NCBI GenBank assembly: GCA_964410325.1
Contig: CAYPFN010000004.1
Coordinates: forward strand, 1,486 to 65,485
Source: an uncultured Azospirillaceae bacterium
GTDB taxonomy: Bacteria > Pseudomonadota > Alphaproteobacteria > RF32 > CAG-239
Length of the DNA: 64,000 nt
Reading direction: 5' to 3'
The first letter of the stretch is position 1. Each line of letters begins with the position of its first letter. This document shows positions 6,651-61,076 of this stretch, in pieces. The position numbers and the translations under genes were made by a program. Below the pieces are notes generated by a model, which saw only the letters and a list, made by a program, of their open reading frames with translations, was not told the DNA's origin and did no database searches.

Positions 6651-7061
6651 TCAGCCAAGTCTTAAAAACGGGCGGGTATAAGCATGTTGGCTTTCTTCTA
6701 TATATATTTCCCGTCCCGACGAAAAATCTAACCCTTGACGTATGTCAAAATCTACCTTCGTTCGACCCCAATATTTATTCTTGTGCAGGGGCGGAAGATT
6801 TAACATTGTCAAGGTTTGATCAACCTCTTCCCTGTAATCAAGCAATATTTGCAGTTGCTTGCTATTAGGGATAACCCAGTACAAATTGCCAATATCCAGT
6901 TCATAGCACATTTTACTGGCTTCTCTCCAACGTAATTTCGGCAAATCTTTAACATATACCGCAACCTCATCTCCTTTGAGGAAAATGGCTACTGGTTGAG
7001 AATTTTCAAGATATCGAGATTCGCCATTTTCGTACAAAACCATTAAAGGTAATTTATCCAT
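6651..7061 (-). CDS. Hypothetical protein (136 aa)
   Basis: Clean ORF with a perfect 10-bp hairpin (agctccttaa/ttaaggagct) immediately downstream at 6624-6649. No recognisable motif. Confidence 0.45.
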   Translation of the reverse strand: MDKLPLMVLYENGESRYLENSQPVAIFLKGDEVAVYVKDLPKLRWREASKMCYELDIGNLYWVIPNSKQLQILLDYREEVDQTLTMLNLPPLHKNKYWGRTKVDFDIRQGLDFSSGREIYIEESQHAYTRPFLRLG

Positions 7062-7119
7062 ATATAAATAATTTTTATTTGTCAGTTAATTTGACATACA
7101 AAACAAATTTTGTCAAGCA

Positions 7120-8187
7120 TTAGTTCTGTTCTTTTTGTGACTTTAGTTGCCCGCAGGCCGCTAAAATATCTTGTCCGCGTGCCACACGCACCGGAGCGGC
7201 AAAACCTGATTTTTCCAGAATATTGGCAAAAGCCTCGATGTTTTTATCAGAACTCGGTTTAAAACTGCATCCCGGCCAAGGATTAAAAGGTATCAGGTTA
7301 AAAGAAGCGCGAATTTTGTATTTTTTCATTAAAACCGTTAATTCTCGGGCATGTTCCAGAGAATCGTTTATTCCGTCCAGCATTAAATATTCAAAAGTAA
7401 TGTAGCGGCTGCCATCGATTTCCTGATATTTCTGGCAAGCTTTTAAAATTTCTTCTATCGGATAACGGTCATTTATCGGCATAATTTGTGAACGAATCCG
7501 ATTGTTCGGTGCATGCAGTGAAACTGCCAGGCGGACGCCCGTGGCTTTTAAAACAGGTACAATTTTCGGAACAATGCCAGAAGTTGACATTGTTACTCGC
7601 CGGCGGGATATGGCAATGCCATCACCGTCAGTTAAAATATTTAGAGCTTTGATAATATTATCCGGATTATGCAACGGCTCACCCATGCCCATAACGACAA
7701 TATTTGACAGATAGCGTATTTCATCGGTTGGACTCGGCCATTCGCCGTAAGTATCGCGCGCCACCATAAATTGACCGACTATTTCGCCAGCCGTTAGATT
7801 CCTCGTCAATTTTTGGCTACCAGTATGGCAAAATCTGCAACCGACAGCACAGCCTACTTGAGTAGATATACACACGGTACCCCGATCGTTTTCCGGAATA
7901 TAAACCATTTCTACCCTTTGGCCGTCTTGAAATTCCAGCAGCCATTTGCGGGTTTTGTCTTTAGAAAGCTGTTCGGCGATAATTTTCGGACGGGTAATTA
8001 TAAAATTATCTTTAAGCTTTTGGCGCAGCTCCTTAGCAAGATTTGTCATCTTGTCAAAATCGGTTTCACCGTGGAAATACAGCCATTGCCAGAGTTGTTT
8101 GGCGCGAAACGGTTTTTCTCCGATTTTTGCAAGCAGTCGTTCTAGTTCGACTTTGCTTAACTCTGTCAGTTCAATTTTTTCAGCCAT
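7120..8187 (-). CDS. rlmN: 23S rRNA/tRNA adenine C2-methyltransferase, radical SAM
   Basis: 355 aa. Radical-SAM CxxxCxxC (CAVGCRFC), GMGEPL motif and a C-terminal CGQL. Confidence 0.85.
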   Translation of the reverse strand: MAEKIELTELSKVELERLLAKIGEKPFRAKQLWQWLYFHGETDFDKMTNLAKELRQKLKDNFIITRPKIIAEQLSKDKTRKWLLEFQDGQRVEMVYIPENDRGTVCISTQVGCAVGCRFCHTGSQKLTRNLTAGEIVGQFMVARDTYGEWPSPTDEIRYLSNIVVMGMGEPLHNPDNIIKALNILTDGDGIAISRRRVTMSTSGIVPKIVPVLKATGVRLAVSLHAPNNRIRSQIMPINDRYPIEEILKACQKYQEIDGSRYITFEYLMLDGINDSLEHARELTVLMKKYKIRASFNLIPFNPWPGCSFKPSSDKNIEAFANILEKSGFAAPVRVARGQDILAACGQLKSQKEQN

Positions 8188-8205
8188 TATTTTACGCCGT
8201 TCATG

Positions 8206-8712
8206 CTATTTTTTGCCGCATTTGGCGCTTATAGCGTTATAAGCCCGGGTAAAACCAGAAAGGGAATAAGTGTCTTTGGTTTTGGTTCCCCGAGAGGACA
8301 CGCCGTTAACAATCATGCGCTGTCCACGTTTCATGGCCGCCACCAGCGCTTTATCGTCTTTTTCGGTTAAAGTCCAGGCTTTATCATCATCAATAAAAAA
8401 TTTATCAAATGTCTGCGTACCGATTTTAACCGTCACTTTGGCGCTTTTTTGATATGTATAACCGGCTACCAGATTAAAAACGTCAAAACTGTTTTCTCCT
8501 GGACGATGGGTTACAACGGCATAAATATCGCCGCGGCGGGTATATTTTCCTTCATCTCTTTTAGGGACAGAGGCCATATAACAAACGTTTTTTCCGTTTT
8601 CTTTATAGGTGTATGCTACCCAATCGCCATATTCGCCGATTAAACGTGGCGCCTCTATGGCGTAAGACGCTTTTGTAAACAAAAAAGTTGCTAAAATTAA
8701 ATACTTAAACAT
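8206..8712 (-). CDS. ialB: Invasion-associated locus B (IalB) family protein
   Basis: Likely start at the internal Met (MFKYLILATFLFTKASYA, a signal peptide). IalB-like EYGDWVAYTYKENGKNVCYM...VVTHRPG...VNGVSSRGT. The track ORF extends to 8853 in AT-rich sequence. Confidence 0.65.
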   Translation of the reverse strand: MFKYLILATFLFTKASYAIEAPRLIGEYGDWVAYTYKENGKNVCYMASVPKRDEGKYTRRGDIYAVVTHRPGENSFDVFNLVAGYTYQKSAKVTVKIGTQTFDKFFIDDDKAWTLTEKDDKALVAAMKRGQRMIVNGVSSRGTKTKDTYSLSGFTRAYNAISAKCGKK

Positions 8713-42867: not shown

Positions 42868-43860
42868 ATGTATAATTATTTTTTGTCGGGGGCTGTCATG
42901 CTTAGTTTGAAAAATTTTTCCTTAATTTTGGTCGGAATACTGTTTTGGAGCGTTTCTGCCGAGGCTCGAGTTTGTTTTTTAGCCGGAAGTGATGATGATG
43001 AAAACTGTTTGACCTCTATAGGAGATTTTGTCGAGGATGGATGTTCGGGGTATTTATCTTGTGACATTCCAATTATTGGCGCATCAACTTGCGCTAACAG
43101 TGAGCAGTCTCTTTACCAGCCGGAAGATTGTTGTTCGAACGGCTCTTATTTTGAACGTTGTGACGGTGAGGGGCAGGTTTGTAACGGCGTCAGTTGTAAG
43201 GGCTATGATGCAAACGGCGACATTTACGAATCTTGTGAAATTGGATACTGTAGCTGTGATAGCTCTTATTCGGAAACTTGTTCGGGAAATGGTTTAACCG
43301 GTGATGGCGAAGCTTGTAATGGTTTGTATCAGAGCTGTAAATGTTCTGATGAATATTATGCTTGTGATGCTGAAGCTGAAGGTAGTGGCTCTTCTTGTTA
43401 CGACGACACACAAAAATATACTTCTTGTACATGTCCGGATGCTGATGGAAGCACATGGGTGTCCGATGCAAGCGATTGTTGTTTTGGTTACTCTAAATAT
43501 TGTGTTAATCGTCCTAGTGGCCGTATTGTTTATGAGTGTAACCTAGTAACGTTTGAGAATTGTTCCTGTGGATATACTTATGCATCAGGTACTTCATCAT
43601 GCATAAACGGCTGTACTGATGAAGATTATGAATATGTCGGGGTTCCAGAGAATGTGACTTGTAAAGATCTTCTCAACGGGCTTAGCACAACCTGCGGCAA
43701 CAATTGTACTTGTAAAAGCGGATATTGGGATTTTACGGAAAGTTGTGAACAACAGGTGTCTACAGTTTGTACCAATATAGGATATACAGATACTTCGTGC
43801 AGCGGTGAATGGATTGCTTGCCCATATGATGCTTCAGCGAAGAAATGTCTGAATATATAA
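42868..43860 (+). CDS. Cysteine-rich secreted protein (330 aa; ~45 Cys), hypothetical
   Basis: Signal peptide (MLSLKNFSLILVGILFWSVSAEA; likely start at ~42898). The mature part is dominated by C, G, S, D, E, Y, T with recurring CSG/CxC/SC spacings. Confidence 0.55.
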   Translation: MYNYFLSGAVMLSLKNFSLILVGILFWSVSAEARVCFLAGSDDDENCLTSIGDFVEDGCSGYLSCDIPIIGASTCANSEQSLYQPEDCCSNGSYFERCDGEGQVCNGVSCKGYDANGDIYESCEIGYCSCDSSYSETCSGNGLTGDGEACNGLYQSCKCSDEYYACDAEAEGSGSSCYDDTQKYTSCTCPDADGSTWVSDASDCCFGYSKYCVNRPSGRIVYECNLVTFENCSCGYTYASGTSSCINGCTDEDYEYVGVPENVTCKDLLNGLSTTCGNNCTCKSGYWDFTESCEQQVSTVCTNIGYTDTSCSGEWIACPYDASAKKCLNI

Positions 43861-45585: not shown

Positions 45586-45622
45586 GTTGTTAAAAAACCG
45601 GCTTTGCGCCGGTTTTTTATGG
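45586..45622. terminator. Hairpin terminator between gpsA-like and ctrA (bidirectional)
   Basis: aaaaaaccggctttgcgccggttttttat. A near-identical copy is at 51303-51336. Confidence 0.55.
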
Positions 45623-45650: not shown

Positions 45651-46337
45651 TCATTTAACCTCATCCGGATCGCGTAGAACGTAACCGCGGCCCCAGACGG
45701 TTTCAATATAATTTTTACCACCAGAGGCTTTTTCTAATTTTTTACGCAGCTTACAGATGAAGACATCAATAATTTTTAATTCAGGTTCATCAATACCGCC
45801 ATAAAGATGGTTTAAAAACTGATCTTTGTTTAAGGTAGAACCTTTACGCAAAGACAATAGCTCCATAATACCGTATTCTTTACCAGTTAGATGTAATGCT
45901 TTGCCACAGACGGTTACCGTTTGTGTATCAAGATTGACTTCAACATCGCCAGTTTTAATAATGGAGTTGGAATGTCCTTTTGAGCGACGGACAATAGCCT
46001 GAATACGCGCTAAAAGTTCGGATTTGTCAAAAGGTTTGGTCAGATAGTCGTCCGCGCCATAACCTAAACCCTTAACCTTTTTATCTGGTTCGCTTAAACC
46101 GGAGAGAATTAAAACAGGAGTGTTGACTTTGGCATTGCGCAGACTTTTTAGAACTTCATAACCATTCATATCCGGAAGCATCAGGTCTAGAATAATGATA
46201 TCATAATCGTATAATTTGCCGATTTCGAGTCCATCTTCGCCCAAATCGGTCGCATCAACAATCATGCCTTCTTTTTTTAACATTATTTCAATGTTTTGCG
46301 AGACGGCATAATCATCTTCTACTAACAATACTCTCAT
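45651..46337 (-). CDS. ctrA: Cell-cycle response regulator CtrA (OmpR family)
   Basis: 228 aa. Receiver domain with D51-type [11 protein letters not shown], and a winged-helix C-terminus ending in the GRGYVLRD-type motif. Confidence 0.85.
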
Positions 46338-46519: not shown

Positions 46520-47095
46520 ATGTTTCAATTACCGCTGCTGAGTTATAAACTTGATGAACTTGCCCCCTATATTTCCCAAAACACAATGGCGTTTCATTAT
46601 TTGAAACATCATCAAACATATATTGATAATCTGAATAAACTGATTGTTGGAACAGCGTTCGAAAATATGGCTCTGCCGGCAATTGTTAAAAATACTGCCA
46701 GGAAAACGGAATACAAGGCAATTTTTAACAATGCCGCGCAAACTTGGAATCACTCTTTTTTCTGGAATTCCATGCGGCCGAACGGTGGTGGCAAACCGCA
46801 TGGGCAGTTGTTTGAGGAAATAATAAAATCTTTCGGCAGTTATGAAAACTTTCGCAAAGAGTTTAAAGACGCCGCGCTGGCACAGTTTGGTAGTGGCTGG
46901 GCTTGGCTTATTCGTGAAGATAAAGACCGTTTGGCCATTATGAAAACAGCAAATGCGGATAATCCTCTCGCACATGATTTAGAGGCGGTTTTGACAATCG
47001 ATGTCTGGGAACATGCGTATTATCTGGATTATCAAAACCGTCGCGCCGATTTTATTGATGCCTTTTTGGATCATCTGGTGGATTGGAAAGAATAA
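46520..47095 (+). CDS. sodB: Fe/Mn superoxide dismutase
   Basis: 191 aa. H..H, and the DVWEHAYYLDYQNRR metal-binding motif. Confidence 0.9.
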   Translation: MFQLPLLSYKLDELAPYISQNTMAFHYLKHHQTYIDNLNKLIVGTAFENMALPAIVKNTARKTEYKAIFNNAAQTWNHSFFWNSMRPNGGGKPHGQLFEEIIKSFGSYENFRKEFKDAALAQFGSGWAWLIREDKDRLAIMKTANADNPLAHDLEAVLTIDVWEHAYYLDYQNRRADFIDAFLDHLVDWKE

Positions 47096-47210: not shown

Positions 47211-47286
47211 GGTCCCATCGTCTAGAGGCTTAGGACGCGGCCCTCTCAAGGCTGCAACACGGGTTCGAATCCCGTTGGGATCACCA
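47211..47286 (+). tRNA. tRNA-Glu (anticodon read as CTC)
   Basis: GGTCCCATCGTCTAGAGGCTTAGGACGCGGCCCTCTCAAGGCTGCAACACGGGTTCGAATCCCGTTGGGATCACCA, which aligns with the canonical tRNA-Glu. The anticodon loop is CTCTCAA. Confidence 0.75.
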
Positions 47287-47292
47287 ATGCAA

Positions 47293-47317
47293 GCCTCTCT
47301 TTTTAAGAGAGGCTTTG
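47293..47317 (+). terminator. Hairpin terminator immediately after tRNA-Glu
   Basis: gcctctctt ttt aagagaggc ttt. Confidence 0.55.
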
Positions 47318-47321
47318 TTGT

Positions 47322-47400
47322 TGACCCTAGAGATTCGAACCCGAGGTTCGTTCAATTGCGACTAAATTTCGCTTTGCGACGCTGTCGCTTGCTTGCTCAA
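47322..47400 (-). repeat. Degenerate inverted partial copy of the tRNA-Glu 3' half
   Basis: The reverse complement contains CCTCGGGTTCGAATCTCTAGGGTCAACA. Compare the tRNA's ACACGGGTTCGAATCCCGTTGGGATCACCA. Confidence 0.35.
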
Positions 47401-47458
47401 TAAGTCTCATTGTGTCTCCTCAGAAAAAGAGCGTTAGGGCTCTTTTTCTTTCGGCCAT

Positions 47459-47480
47459 CCGTTGGGATCACCAATGCAAA
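47459..47480 (+). repeat. Direct repeat of the tRNA-Glu 3' end (ccgttgggatcaccaatgcaa), att-site-like scar
   Basis: An exact ~21-bp copy of 47272-47292, located 187 bp downstream. Confidence 0.5.
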
Positions 47481-47665
47481 TGGCAGGTATGAAAACTGCC
47501 GTTTTTCTTTATTTTCCAGGGACTTCAGCGAGTTTGAGAGTTGTAAATTTGAAATTACGGTTTTGGGAAGCTTATACGAACTCGTTTAGAAAAAATATTT
47601 ATTTTTTTCAAATGCTTAGATCTGTTGAAATCTTGTTCAATTTTTGGGGATGTTTTGTTTTTCAG

Positions 47666-48448
47666 TTAACGTAGATTTATGCCGTATTTCTTTACTAAGC
47701 TTTTCAGAGCCTCTTTAGTGATCTTATCTTGATACCATTGTTGTCTTTCTTCTTTAAAAAATTCATTTCCGGCCGTCATACAGTCAGGGCAAAAGGGAGA
47801 TATATTGTGTTTTTTTGCGAGTAATCGGGCTCTTGTTATATCGCTAAAATCGCCATCAGATCTTTGTTGCATAATGCACATCTCGTCTGGATCTGTACAA
47901 TGTGGGCCTAAATTCTCTTCAGAATTTTTTCTTCTTTCGTAAGTAAGATTAATAACATGTCCAAACTCGTGCATTAATACTGTTTTGAAGTTTTCGCGAT
48001 CAATCAGCTTGCCGTTTTGATTTGAAAAGCGGTAGGCAGAAACAACACAGCCAATCCTCTCTTCTCCTATACCTAGACAATATGCATCCTTATCATAAGG
48101 ATATAAATCATCTTTTGTCAACAAGATTGTAAATTGTGGAATTTGTTGATTTGTCGGGTCTTTCTGCATTGTTTCAAGTAAGGTGCTTGCATTTAGCCGA
48201 TGATAATTAGGGTCTGGTCGGGCATTTTCAATATGCCAACGAGTGCTTTTATATGGAGCCAGATAAAGCTTCCCATTTTGAGAATAGATATACCCATGAT
48301 CTTTCCATGCACCTAAATTAGTAATTGGATAATCATTTTTATATTCAGGGAAAAACCCCATGATTTCGCTAATTGCTTCGACAGCGACATAGTTTACTTC
48401 AGGATCAAGCCCATCTTGGCTAACTATATAAATATCTCTCTGTTTCAT
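47666..48448 (-). CDS. Archaemetzincin-like (peptidase M54-like) zinc metallopeptidase
   Basis: 260 aa. HEFGHVINL followed by C..DPDEMCIM and CPDC, reminiscent of the archaemetzincin HExxHxxGx3Cx4CxMx17CxxC signature. The spacings are not identical. Confidence 0.5.
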   Translation of the reverse strand: MKQRDIYIVSQDGLDPEVNYVAVEAISEIMGFFPEYKNDYPITNLGAWKDHGYIYSQNGKLYLAPYKSTRWHIENARPDPNYHRLNASTLLETMQKDPTNQQIPQFTILLTKDDLYPYDKDAYCLGIGEERIGCVVSAYRFSNQNGKLIDRENFKTVLMHEFGHVINLTYERRKNSEENLGPHCTDPDEMCIMQQRSDGDFSDITRARLLAKKHNISPFCPDCMTAGNEFFKEERQQWYQDKITKEALKSLVKKYGINLR

Positions 48449-48624
48449 GATATATCCCTCTGTTCTATATTATACCCTTATTTTTATTAAAAATCAAGGA
48501 ATGCAAATAGCCAGCCGTTTTACAACTTGTCCGAACAATTTATTTATTGATATATTTTAAAGATAGGATTATGAGATATTTCTTTTGCAATAGACACCGC
48601 TTCTTTAAAAACTGGCAATAAATT

Positions 48625-49317: not shown

Positions 49318-49883
49318 ACTGTGCGTTTAAGCCTCATCAAGTCAAAAAGTCTTTATTGTTTTGGAATATAAGAAAGATTAAATTAGTTTTATTACATTTT
49401 CATAGATTTTTTTAGTCGTTGTTTGAAAATTTTTATAGGTATTTACTATTGCTTTATTTGCAATTTTAGCACAAATTTCCTTAAGTTCTGGATTTATTTT
49501 GCCGCTTAAAATATCTCCTTTTAATTTGTTAGGATTTTTTCCAAGGATATTGTTGATGGCTTTTTCTAGAGCATCAGGTTCTTTATCCTGCTCTTTTAAA
49601 CGTTCTTTAGTTTCTTTTATTTTTTGTTCAATTTCCTTGGCTTGTTGAGCATTTTCAACAGTTTCTTTAGCTTGTTTTGGATTATCGGCTGCAGGTCGTG
49701 CGGAATGATTTGGAGCGGCAACTGCAGAAAATGACGCTTGCTAACATGCAGGCTGAATTGCATAAAATTTCTTGAAAATTATTTATAAAAACTGCTTTAA
49801 TAAAAGCAGTAACACTGTTTATATAGTAAAATGATTCTGAAACAATAGGGATATTAAAGGTTATCAACGGCTAAGATTGAAAT

Positions 49884-50549
49884 ATGTTTGAAGAGATTTT
49901 TAAGTATAAAAAGGCGGAGTTTGCCGCAATAGAAGATTTTGGCTTTGTTAAGACGGAAAGTGGCTATATTTGGTCGAAAGATATTTTGGGCGGTACGTTT
50001 GAGTTGAGGGTTTTAATAGATAAGTCCGGCGCGATTAAAAGCAATGTGATAGACAAAGATACCAGAGAGATGTATGTTTTATATCAGGCGGTAAATGCAG
50101 AAGGGGCGTTTATCGGGAAAATGCGCGAAGAGTGTCGGCGGATTTTGCAAGAGATTGCCGATAGGTGCTATGTTTCTCAGATTTTTAAGAGTACGGTTAC
50201 ACAACAGGTTATTGCCTATGTGCAGCAAAAATATCACGACAAATTGGAATTTTTATGGGAAAAATTTCCAGATAACGCGGTTTTTCGCCGTTCAGACAAT
50301 AAAAAATGGTATGCGGCGATTTTGACGGTGATGGCATCTAAACTCAATCTAGAAAATGATAGGAAATTTGAGGTCATAGATTTGCGCGGCACACCAGAAA
50401 ACATTGTTGTTTGGGTTGATGGCATTAGATATTTTCCGGGGTATCATATGAATAAAAAAAACTGGTATACTATTTGTCTTGATGGTTCGGTTGATGTTGC
50501 AGAAATATTTTGGCGAATTGATGAAAGTTATCGGTTGGCAAAAAAATGA
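49884..50549 (+). CDS. MmcQ/YjbR-family protein (predicted DNA-binding)
   Basis: 221 aa. The ..KKWYAAIL.. and GYHMNKKNWYTICLDGSV segments match the YjbR signature as I recall it. Confidence 0.55.
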   Translation: MFEEIFKYKKAEFAAIEDFGFVKTESGYIWSKDILGGTFELRVLIDKSGAIKSNVIDKDTREMYVLYQAVNAEGAFIGKMREECRRILQEIADRCYVSQIFKSTVTQQVIAYVQQKYHDKLEFLWEKFPDNAVFRRSDNKKWYAAILTVMASKLNLENDRKFEVIDLRGTPENIVVWVDGIRYFPGYHMNKKNWYTICLDGSVDVAEIFWRIDESYRLAKK

Positions 50550-50743
50550 TTTAACTTTCTTTAAAGTTAGTATGAAACCAGAAAGTGAGTATTGAATCAG
50601 CGTAAGTTTCTTTTTAAATTGCATTGTGGTAATGTGAGGATAAATCACGGCAGTGCGAAAATTTTTTGTCATTTGTATTGACTGTGGTGGCTTTAAGCAT
50701 ATTGCCGAAAGCAGACCTGGCAATATAATCAGGAGGAAGAAAT

Positions 50744-51298
50744 ATGAATAAAAAAATTGTTATATTAAACGGAAGTCCGCGCCTGAACGGCAATACTCAA
50801 GGTCTGATTGAAGCCTTCAGTAAAGGCGCGAAAAGCAAGGGATATGAGGTTAAATGTTTTAATCTGCAAAAGATGAATATTCATGGATGTTTAGGGTGTT
50901 TTGGTGGTGGTAGAGATAAAAACAGTCCCTGTGTTCAAAAGGATGATATGCTACAGATATATCCGGATTATGTTGCGGCAGATATTATTGTACTGGCTTC
51001 ACCGATGTATTATTGGGGTTTTTCAGGACAATTAAAATGTGCATTTGACCGTTTGTTTGCGGTTGCCGAATGTAATCCGAATTATGAAAATCCAAAAAAA
51101 GACTGTGTTTTGCTTATGGCTTCGGAAGGCAATGATAAAGATAATGCCAAACCTGTAAAGTACTATTATGAAAAACTTTTGGCGCATCTAGGCTGGCGTG
51201 ATTTGGGACAAATTTATGCTGGCGGTGTTTTAAAACTTGGCGATATTAAAGGGCATAAAGCTTTGCTTGAAGCGGAGCAGCTGGGTATTTCTTTATAA
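50744..51298 (+). CDS. Flavodoxin-like NAD(P)H-dependent FMN reductase family protein
   Basis: 184 aa. MNKKIVILNGSPRLNGNT is typical of the NADPH-dependent FMN reductase fold. Confidence 0.6.
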   Translation: MNKKIVILNGSPRLNGNTQGLIEAFSKGAKSKGYEVKCFNLQKMNIHGCLGCFGGGRDKNSPCVQKDDMLQIYPDYVAADIIVLASPMYYWGFSGQLKCAFDRLFAVAECNPNYENPKKDCVLLMASEGNDKDNAKPVKYYYEKLLAHLGWRDLGQIYAGGVLKLGDIKGHKALLEAEQLGISL

Positions 51299-51302
51299 TT
51301 AA

Positions 51303-51336
51303 AATAAAAAACCGGCTTTGTGCCGGTTTTTTATTT
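51303..51336. terminator. Bidirectional hairpin terminator between the flavodoxin-like gene and hxlR-family gene
   Basis: aaaaaaccggctttgtgccggttttttatttt. Confidence 0.55.
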
Positions 51337-51668
51337 TAAGAACGATGTTTATCACCCCAATCGCATAAATCAAATAAAATCGGAATTAAAGATTTTCCTT
51401 TTTCTGACAAACTATATTCAACTTTAGGAGGCATTTCCAGATAAACTTTTCGTAAAACCAGGCCGTCTTTTTCTAACTCTTTTAACGAGGTGCTTAACAT
51501 TTTAAATGATATCTTGCCGATTAAACGGTGCAGGGCATTGTGTCGCAAAATGCCGAATTCACCTAGCCAGTAAAGTATAATCATTTTATATTTGCCACCG
51601 ATGAGTGATAATGTGTAGCCAAATCCAGTGTCTTCAATTTTGATGTTTGGTTCGATACAGCGTTGCAT
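51336..51668 (-). CDS. HxlR-family winged-helix transcriptional regulator
   Basis: 110 aa. Recognition helix region SFKMLSTSLKELEKDGLVLRKVY..PPKVEYSLSEKG. Confidence 0.7.
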   Translation of the reverse strand: MQRCIEPNIKIEDTGFGYTLSLIGGKYKMIILYWLGEFGILRHNALHRLIGKISFKMLSTSLKELEKDGLVLRKVYLEMPPKVEYSLSEKGKSLIPILFDLCDWGDKHRS

Positions 51669-51745
51669 TTTAAGCTATCCTTAAGGTTAGTATTAAACGA
51701 AAAGGTAAGTATTGAATAAAAATATATTATAGGGATATATTTTTA

Positions 51746-60948: not shown

Positions 60949-61041
60949 GGAGAGATGGCAGAGCGGTTGAATGCGGTTGACTCGAAATCAATTGTACTCT
61001 TTAACGGGGTACCTAGGGTTCGAATCCCTATCTCTCCGCCA
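60949..61041 (+). tRNA. tRNA-Ser (anticodon CGA)
   Basis: GGAGAGATGGCAGAGCGGTTGAATGCGGTTGACTCGAAATCAATTG..long arm..TAGGGTTCGAATCCCTATCTCTCCGCCA. Closely parallels the E. coli tRNA-Ser(CGA) layout. Confidence 0.8.
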
Positions 61042-61047
61042 TTAAGC

Positions 61048-61076
61048 AAAACCCCGCACAAGGCGGGGTTTTGCTT
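61048..61076. terminator. Bidirectional hairpin terminator
   Basis: aaaaccccgcacaaggcggggttttg. Confidence 0.55.

Follow-up and report, generated by a model that had tools for sequence, protein, structure and literature searches.

Organization of the tRNA-Glu locus

We analyzed a stretch of 64,000 nt (hereafter, the window) of contig CAYPFN010000004.1 from an uncultured Azospirillaceae bacterium (assembly GCA_964410325.1), in which the 3' end of a tRNA-Glu gene is repeated on both sides of a short gene-less segment, designated here as unit X. The intact tRNA-Glu(CTC) gene with an encoded CCA end, the anchor of the array described below, was found on the plus strand at positions 47211–47286 (ARAGORN; Rfam RF00005, 57.4 bits); both tools placed its start at 47211, and its 3' limit was set at 47286 by ARAGORN and at 47283 by Rfam. 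It was preceded, with a gap of 116 nt, by a gene encoding Fe/Mn superoxide dismutase (SOD; 46520–47095), and a CtrA-type response regulator (45651–46337) was encoded further upstream.

The 21-mer CCGTTGGGATCACCAATGCAA, which spans the tRNA 3' end from the T-stem to CCA together with six trailer bases, was present in exactly two copies, both on the plus strand. The proximal, attL-like copy (47272–47292) comprises 15 nt of the tRNA 3' end and ATGCAA; the distal, attR-like copy is located at 47459–47479. No further copy was found in the window with up to three mismatches allowed, and 100 dinucleotide shuffles gave no matches. Between the two copies, the trailer, CCA, acceptor, and T-arm of tRNA-Glu recur in degenerate, inverted form on the minus strand (47316–47343); the minus strand of 47318–47345 reads CCTCGGGTTCGAATCTCTAGGGTCAACA, as quoted in the first-pass annotation of this locus. 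The inverted copy shares a perfect 12-nt inverted repeat with the T-arm of the gene (47260–47271 and 47332–47343) and gave a local score of 25 when aligned with the reverse-complemented final 34 nt of the tRNA, a value reached in none of 300 shuffles. Another tRNA as the source of this fragment was rejected: tRNA-Glu aligned best among the four tRNAs of the window, and tRNA-Ser shared only the T-loop. Nor is it an inverted tRNA pseudogene, since only the 3' half is present and neither ARAGORN nor Rfam, even at E = 10, called a tRNA on the minus strand. Both the direct repeat and the inverted half, which the first-pass annotation had reported from the letters alone, are thus confirmed as observations.

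Comparison with relatives (see below) defines an inserted segment of 187 bp (47293–47479, plus strand), composed of the 166-bp unit X and the distal repeat copy. Its left part holds terminator-like hairpin A (47291–47315, plus strand), with an 11-bp stem and a 3-nt loop, which forms the centre of one imperfect palindrome of 84 nt (47260–47343). The inverted copy is followed by a second turn-back hairpin, CGAACC-cga-GGTTCG (47336–47350, plus strand), in which the 5' half of the T-arm appears again in the forward direction. The right end of X is occupied by a bidirectional terminator-like hairpin, AGAAAAAGAGC-gttagg-GCTCTTTTTCT (47422–47449). The core of X (47364–47404, plus strand; AATTTCGC...GCTGTCGCTT.CTTGCTCAATAA) is shared with the trailer of tRNA-Glu(CTC) in metagenome locus L186 (here and below, loci are designated by L numbers). 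The global alignment score between X and this trailer was 58, compared with 12.5 ± 5 and a maximum of 35 for shuffled sequences; the hairpin stems differ, and the core is kept. Regarding the features of miniature inverted-repeat transposable elements, X has imperfectly inverted ends, with a tRNA half in inverted orientation at one and a tRNA end in direct orientation at the other, the duplication spans 21 bp, and X occurs once in the 64-kb window.

The minus strand of X contains an open reading frame (ORF) of 27 codons (MRLIEQASDSVAKRNLVAIERTSGSNL, 47327–47410) with a GAGGAG Shine–Dalgarno sequence, which runs into the inverted tRNA half; it was rejected as a gene, because it is not conserved in the L186 homologue. 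Rfam searches of the window region and of locus L088, at the gathering threshold and at E = 10, identified the tRNA alone; weak matches to microRNA and small RNA families merely reflected the hairpins.

The distal repeat continues into a conserved element, the B module (47467–47649, plus strand), which consists of ATCACCA, ATGCAA, terminator hairpin B (47482–47500), and about 150 conserved nt. A profile built from tRNA trailers (ATCACCA, AT.CAA, terminator, and about 150 nt) recovered it with nhmmer at E = 9.5e-37 as a single copy in the window. In relatives, the B module is the native-type trailer of tRNA-Glu genes and also the junction unit of cassette arrays. The module, of about 190 nt, was found behind tRNA-Glu(TTC) and tRNA-Glu(CTC) in more than 40 loci, whatever gene follows (47467–47660 in the window; 3302–3470 in L222; also L189 and L148). 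The terminator is followed by TTTCAGCGAGTTCGAATG...TTTGAAAAT...TTTTGGGAAG...CCGAACTCGTTTG...TTTATTTTTCAA in this order; a T-loop-like box, GAGTTCGAA, has its pairing partner, CGAACTC, at a distance of about 45 nt, and in the window the long-range pair is formed by CGAGTTTG (47529–47536) and CGAACTCG (47577–47584). Neither an Rfam match nor a conserved ORF was found for the module. A small protein was considered and rejected: pseudo-translations look conserved, but the frames shift and the start codon is not kept.

Unoccupied sites in relatives and soundness of the assembly

Relatives with the same gene frame were reached through SOD homologues of 79–86% identity. Among the matches listed in a SOD search of genome contigs, the best was 60% identical, and tRNA-Glu was nearby in 0 of the 14 loci checked. 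Loci L222 and L223 share the CtrA–SOD–tRNA-Glu(CTC) context (SOD 82% identical), and there the tRNA is directly followed by ATACAA, the terminator hairpin, and the conserved block, homologous to the sequence past the second repeat of the window. The alignment of the window with these loci has a clean gap of 187 nt, and L195 also lacks the 187 bp. The uninterrupted form of tRNA and trailer was found, besides L195, in L121, L136, and L141 (all CTC), as well as in many TTC loci. Since the tRNA of relatives joins the B module directly, the insertion amounts to 166 + 21 bp, and the distal repeat represents the original end of the tRNA, displaced together with its own trailer. Thus, both an unoccupied, attB-like site and a direct repeat of the tRNA 3' end with the intact tRNA at one end were found.

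The first-pass annotation regarded the repeats as attL/attR remnants of integration. This holds insofar as they bracket a 187-nt insertion that is absent from L222/L223 and L195; however, they enclose only 166 gene-less bp and not the genes at 47.6–52.3 kb. Relatives with identical junctions and no variation, which would have spoken for an ancestral arrangement, were not what the comparison revealed. The predicted empty-site junction reads tRNA...CCAATGCAA joined to ATGGCAGG (longer form, ...GGGATCACCAATGCAA joined to ATGGCAGGTATG), and the predicted circle junction of excised X is GGCCAT-CCGTTGGGATCACCAATGCAA-GCCTCTC (longer form, ...CTTTCGGCCAT, CCGTTGGGATCACCAATGCAA, GCCTCTCTTTTT).

Proteins of the window were recorded in an NCBI contig of 82,234 bp and in the Logan assemblies of SRR7039256, SRR7039257, SRR7039260, and SRR7039263. 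Locus L001 (Logan assembly, SRR7039263) was 100% identical to the window across the region; L004 (Logan assembly, SRR7039256) was 98.8% identical over 8.6 kb and had exactly the same 187-bp unit. These assemblies from other samples span the whole unit with identical sequence; therefore, the structure is not an assembly artefact. Several contigs end within the region: L002 and L005 stop where the left stem of hairpin A has its last base (47301), L003 starts at 47472, and L004 ends at 47505. The ends at 47301 come from two samples and two strain types. Excision polymorphism as their cause was rejected: the positions are off the branch points expected for k = 31, and the breaks at 47301 and 47472 do not fit simple excision junctions. 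A loop flip or a hairpin-related drop in coverage is possible.

In three related species (L089, 12835–12910; L225, 4173–4248; L226, 5073–5148), tRNA-Glu(CTC) was located on the strand opposite to SOD, 0.9–2.3 kb away from it and with a gene between them. The whole tRNA with its trailing units is inverted or re-inserted in some lineages.

Cassette arrays in related metagenome loci

A metagenome scan for the tRNA 3' end gave 120 loci with 105 distinct trailers. Junction modules, two to five per locus and in a single orientation, were present in 15 loci; since L093 and L094 are near-identical, these amount to 14 distinct arrays. The B-module profile identified five copies in L148, four each in L095, L137, and L179, three each in L197, L202, and L169, and two each in L189, L104, L102, L132, L150, L174, and L093; the spacing between junctions according to this profile was 0.36–2 kb. 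Junction copies outside the tRNA genes start at ATCACCA and have a conserved left flank, AGCTCGTAAACTGTGAGTTAAGC, immediately before it. This flank recalls a T-arm in its stem of 5 bp and loop of 7 nt, and the stem is kept through G-C/G-U changes. The cassettes carry unrelated accessory genes, encoding an SDR protein, an alpha/beta hydrolase, MarR with nitroreductase, or an ORF of about 66 aa.

Gain or loss of a cassette within a species was observed. L148/L202 and L137/L095/L179/L197, about 99.4% identical, differ by one cassette of 1.36 kb, placed precisely between ATCACCA of the tRNA and the resident trailer; thus, new DNA enters beside the tRNA, and older units shift outward. A second pair differing by a cassette is formed by L189 and L145.

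Shorter repeats were also found: partial direct repeats of the tRNA end were located at 212 nt in L143, 192 nt in L096, and 161 nt in L157, and in L150/L132 a 358-bp unit adjoining SOD is flanked by ATCACCAATGCAA. A significant inverted tRNA half within 140 nt of the tRNA was present in 9 of the 105 distinct trailers (the window and eight others), and the forward–reverse–forward layout of the window recurred in L143, L096, L133, L144/L213, and L194. Such fold-back modules also serve as junctions: in L144, 1014 nt separate two copies that share 98.6% identity over 141 nt, and the two copies of L096 are 97% identical.

At the position of X, another miniature unit, Y, was found in L088 (4411–4570), L089, L225, L226, L096, L144, and L194. 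It consists of (A/C)AAGTGCCCGAAGC, a hairpin with a locus-specific stem, and AGCAAGAC, followed by a partial tRNA end, and had no Rfam match; in L144, Y joins the partial tRNA inside the T-loop (GCAAGA followed directly by CGAGTCC). L225 (~9075, reverse complement) precisely lacks the terminator hairpin of Y and the inverted TGGTGAT, which are present in L226 (9045–9080, reverse complement) and L089; this difference is a hairpin deletion between close relatives. The recurrent insertion hotspot at tRNA-Glu suggested by the first-pass annotation is borne out by strain and species differences downstream of the tRNA and by the many related loci in which tRNA-end junctions are repeated in arrays.

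Putative peptidase cassette and downstream region

The first gene behind the B module encodes an archaemetzincin-like peptidase (47666–48448, minus strand; NCBIfam). Just past its start codon, a degenerate third junction with mutated ATCACCA was found (48493–48521, plus strand; ATCAAGGAATGCAAATAGCCAGCCGTTTT); its portion at 48500–48521 is a trailer copy in which the hairpin has collapsed. The pattern describing this junction, which was picked post hoc, had two matches and none in shuffles; a generic alignment test gave p = 0.017. A homologue of the peptidase (68% identity) lies between two good junction copies behind tRNA-Glu(TTC) in L093/L094, while the copy in the window lies at tRNA-Glu(CTC). 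Judging from this arrangement, the peptidase looks mobile, and we read it as the cargo of a second, older cassette of about 1.03 kb (47480–48499), bounded by junctions as in L093.

No junction-like sequence was found beyond 48.6 kb: profile and alignment scans of 48.6–52.5 kb gave generic terminator matches only, and the window contains neither a third exact or near-exact att copy downstream nor the cassette right-end motif TGTGAGTTAAGCATCACCA. The content of the region between SOD and apt/holA varies between species, with six genes in 5 kb in the window, about 12 genes in 8–9 kb in L088, L225, and L226, and GNAT–TatA–TatC in L222. YjbR was encoded downstream of tRNA-Glu(CTC) in the window, L088, L222, L225, and L226; it looks resident because it is present in every relative examined.

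Two strains of 99.4–99.6% identity, L006 and L007, lack positions 50598–51668, which carry genes for FMN-reductase (50744–51298) and an HxlR/RrpA-like regulator (51336–51668). In the window, imperfect direct repeats of 48 nt (50550–50597 and 51669–51716, about 75–80% alike) border this segment; the gene pair is a separate strain-level indel with its own repeats. In L007 (9728–9908), about 180 nt of different sequence replaces about 545 nt of the window (49678–50222), including the 5' part of the YjbR-domain gene (49884–50549); a gene of 197 aa was called on the other strand of the replacement. The distant relative L121 encodes FMN-reductase, HxlR, and a lumazine-binding-like protein in the same order (7026–8476), 5.4 kb behind tRNA-Glu(CTC), with amino acid identities of 77%, 80%, and 55%, respectively, while the adjacent SOD is only 60% identical. 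These values hint that the trio may have been exchanged between islands.

The G+C content falls to 0.30–0.33 around 48–49.5 kb. The first-pass annotation proposed that the genes at 47.6–52.3 kb may be the cargo of an insertion hotspot that has lost its integrase. In this form, the proposal was not upheld, given the extent of the repeats, the absence of junctions beyond 48.6 kb, the resident appearance of YjbR, and the separate indel of the FMN-reductase and HxlR genes. The region between SOD and apt/holA is a variable hotspot with recognisable junctions in its first 1.2 kb only, and all of 47.6–52.3 kb as one island is not shown.

Several further features were noted in the window. A 30-nt sequence between the FMN-reductase and HxlR genes (51305–51334) recurs with 29 of 30 identical positions in L004 (6702–6731, corresponding to about 45590–45620 of the window), where it separates the gene for glycerol-3-phosphate dehydrogenase from that for CtrA. 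This sequence probably serves as a bidirectional terminator common to both sites. A perfect 33-nt palindrome (61044–61076) directly after tRNA-Ser(CGA) (60949–61041) is presumably the terminator of this tRNA. A cysteine-rich protein of 330 aa with a signal-peptide-like N-terminus and no Pfam match was encoded at 42868–43860 (plus strand); its homologue (60%) was found in the same neighbourhood in L089.

Origin of unit X

Taken together, these data favour, with a probability of about 0.6, the reading of X as a miniature unit or a remnant without genes, part of a two-unit accretion array that is anchored at the tRNA and served by a recombinase acting in trans. According to this reading, the tRNA-Glu genes of low-GC, gut-type alphaproteobacteria would be accretion sites, where DNA of 0.16–2 kb, often bringing along one accessory gene or two, is added beside the tRNA; older units would be pushed outward, leaving between them same-orientation copies of the last 7–21 nt of the tRNA with the trailer. 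In the window, 187 bp were inserted exactly at the 3' end of tRNA-Glu(CTC); the proximal repeat copy completes the working tRNA, and the distal copy stays joined to the original trailer, terminator, and B module. The array would then consist of two units, X and the peptidase cassette up to the collapsed junction at 48500, and X would be a miniature or decayed member of a family in which a terminator hairpin is followed by an inverted tRNA 3' half.

Neither a tyrosine recombinase nor an rve transposase was found in the window or beside the arrays, and the site was not found in phages, plasmids, or viral contigs; therefore, we infer that a recombinase is supplied in trans. It would probably be a site-specific tyrosine recombinase with a crossover within ATCACCA(ATGCAA). 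Where the flanking copies reach 140–190 nt, homologous integration of the Campbell type would be an equally simple route, for which the 21 bp of the window are short. As for the inverted half, it may belong to the site architecture of the element and could conceivably act as a hairpin site when the DNA is single-stranded; alternatively, template switching at the terminator may have produced it as a by-product.

Several results speak against such an array. We failed to find a recombinase in the 64-kb window (regular expressions; phmmer with four integrases and one rve transposase; Pfam/NCBIfam on six downstream ORFs), the 166 bp themselves contain no gene, and no integrase was found in the retrieved flanks of related arrays; classical islands with tRNA, integrase, and repeat were present only in the unrelated loci L130, L206, and L099. 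Searches of viral contigs, phages, and plasmids gave no match to X, the B module, or the 21-mer: BLAST of 47287–47665 against phages and plasmids matched nothing, and neither did a search of viral contigs with the 21-mer. Matches of 17-mers in viral contigs were considered as attP candidates and rejected, four being complete tRNA-Glu genes and three chance matches in coding sequences. No excised or circular form was observed, and the contig ends described above do not fit such junctions. The third junction is degenerate, and the B-module profile fails to recover the site at 48500. Between loci, the identical stretch differs in length (7, 13, 15, 18, 21, 22, and up to 141 nt), a variation not usually expected from one recombinase, and ordinary att recombination leaves the forward–reverse–forward layout unexplained.

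This layout brings in an origin by replication error, which we regard as unlikely. The hairpin behind the tRNA would have provoked fold-back or template-switch copying (quasipalindrome extension, microhomology-mediated), with no recombinase and no mobile element involved; an inverted copy of the tRNA end would be made first, then a forward piece, and a restart at the tRNA end would produce the 21-bp duplication. Accordingly, the palindrome at 47260–47343 is in register around the hairpin loop and is followed by the second turn-back, and the zig-zag recurs with lineage-specific hairpins in L143, L096, L133, L144/L213, and L194, which fits independent local events. All inverted tRNA-half copies are degenerate, as unselected DNA would be, the partial tRNA copy of L144 has a small internal inversion (TTGGG to CCCAA), and contigs of two samples end exactly at the foot of hairpin A (47301). 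However, about 100 nt of X (47351–47458) have no nearby template, yet are homologous to the tRNA-Glu(CTC) trailer of L186. Template switching also does not account for gene cassettes of 0.36–2 kb with the same junction logic or for gain within a species, and the fold-back modules themselves recur as junctions 1 kb apart with 97–98.6% identity.

Still less probable is that X, the B module, or both represent a functional RNA, that is, a conserved noncoding RNA or a processing or stability signal rather than a scar of recombination. The repeated tRNA end (T-arm-like hairpin and ATCACCA) would in this case be a selected tRNA mimic, for instance a 3' end signal related to RNase P/Z or CCA. In agreement with this, the B module is conserved along about 190 nt, regardless of the neighbouring gene, in more than 40 loci; its long-range stem, which tolerates G-U only when read on the plus strand, and the persistent stem-loop in the left flanks of junctions point the same way. 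X also folds better than shuffled sequences (z = -4.6 for the minus and -3.9 for the plus strand), although most of its low folding energy comes from the three terminator-like hairpins. The invariance of X in strain L004, diverged by 1.2%, is not significant, since only about 2.6 substitutions would be expected in about 220 nt. Moreover, no Rfam family matches, covariation outside the terminator is one-sided only, and the presence or absence of whole units between close relatives is the behaviour of an insertion and not of a resident RNA gene.

Finally, chance similarity or mis-assembly of the metagenome-assembled genome (MAG) has a negligible probability: the source is indeed a metagenome-assembled contig and some short-read contigs break within the region, but zero chance matches are expected, the independent assemblies L001 (100%) and L004 (98.8%) span the unit identically, and the same architecture was found again in unrelated assemblies.

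Comparison with known systems

Tandem accretion with partial tRNAs and integrase-less elements is a published model (PMC5704250; bioRxiv 10.1101/2020.12.28.424599), and this model fits the window and the related arrays. Cis-mobilizable elements (CIMEs) are defined as having kept attL and attR and lost the genes for integration and transfer (PMC5704250); in the window, the repeats are present with no genes between them. As in CIMEs and tandem accretion of the ICESt1–ICESt3 type, the units lack genes for integration or transfer and are delimited by direct repeats that include the 3' end of the target gene, a newer unit stands beside an older one at the same att site, and the intact target gene is regenerated. 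Unlike CIMEs, X is only 166 bp long, gene-less, and without detectable homology to integrative and conjugative elements, integrative and mobilizable elements, phages, or plasmids: its only homologue is the trailer in L186, and no functional partner element or integrase was seen here. The junctions also differ, being a conserved module of about 190 nt or a fold-back module and not a short att core.

The tRNA islands (tycheposons) of Prochlorococcus (bioRxiv 10.1101/2020.12.28.424599) are likewise seeded by tRNAs, grow outward by serial integration, have partial tRNAs between units, and contain degraded remnants and small sets of accessory genes as cargo. Tandem units with partial tRNA copies were found here at three junctions in the window and at up to five in relatives. 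In contrast to tycheposons, neither the characteristic tyrosine recombinase nor a replication or packaging module was found in the window or in the flanks of the arrays; the units are much smaller, the hosts are CtrA-bearing alphaproteobacteria of gut metagenomes, and the comparison made here covered tRNA-Glu genes only.

The arrays resemble those of integrons in having cassettes of one or two genes separated by a repeated, partly palindromic site, entry proximal to the anchor, and accessory cargo. However, no IntI-type integrase with attI lies by the anchor, which is a tRNA gene with SOD and CtrA upstream, and the window contains no recombinase; the junctions are about 190 nt long and contain a terminator and one long-range stem. 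Cassette genes occur on either strand with their own promoters, and they were not co-oriented when the window and L189 were compared with L137 and L144; the R''-L''/L'-R' boxes were not searched for. It is conceivable, but in our opinion doubtful, that the tRNA-Glu genes anchor an integron-like capture system, in which an unlinked recombinase acting on structured sites would add cassettes of 0.2–2 kb one after another at the final 7 nt of the tRNA. Such a site would comprise the T-arm-like hairpin and ATCACCA, with terminator-centred fold-back or ~190-nt modules, and could fold in single-stranded DNA; the window would be a minimal two-unit array of the system.

Quasipalindrome or template-switch mutagenesis at hairpins usually involves few bases. 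The similarity to it lies in the inverted copy of the flank, symmetric across a pre-existing hairpin, and in the imperfect palindromes; such mutagenesis explains neither the foreign sequence of 100 nt nor the 21-bp direct repeat nor the gene-bearing cassettes.

Integration scars at tRNA genes are in themselves ordinary, and the interpretation of the first-pass annotation is partly supported, as regards scars and a hotspot and not as regards one large integrase-less island. Judging from the loci compared, integrase-less arrays of small cassettes at both tRNA-Glu genes appear widespread in uncultured alphaproteobacteria, several of them on contigs labelled as human gut, and a limited literature search found no published description of such arrays. 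If a dedicated trans-acting recombinase is responsible, they would represent a compact way of capturing genes, not described before, in a gut lineage that has been little studied. Integrons are not known from Alphaproteobacteria; if this absence holds and the capture system is real, cassette accretion would have been invented independently. ATCACCA with the trailer module would then be a practical marker for recently acquired genes in MAGs. If the units are instead decay products of ordinary islands, the locus would still be a clean case of accretion and of erosion to a 166-bp remnant.

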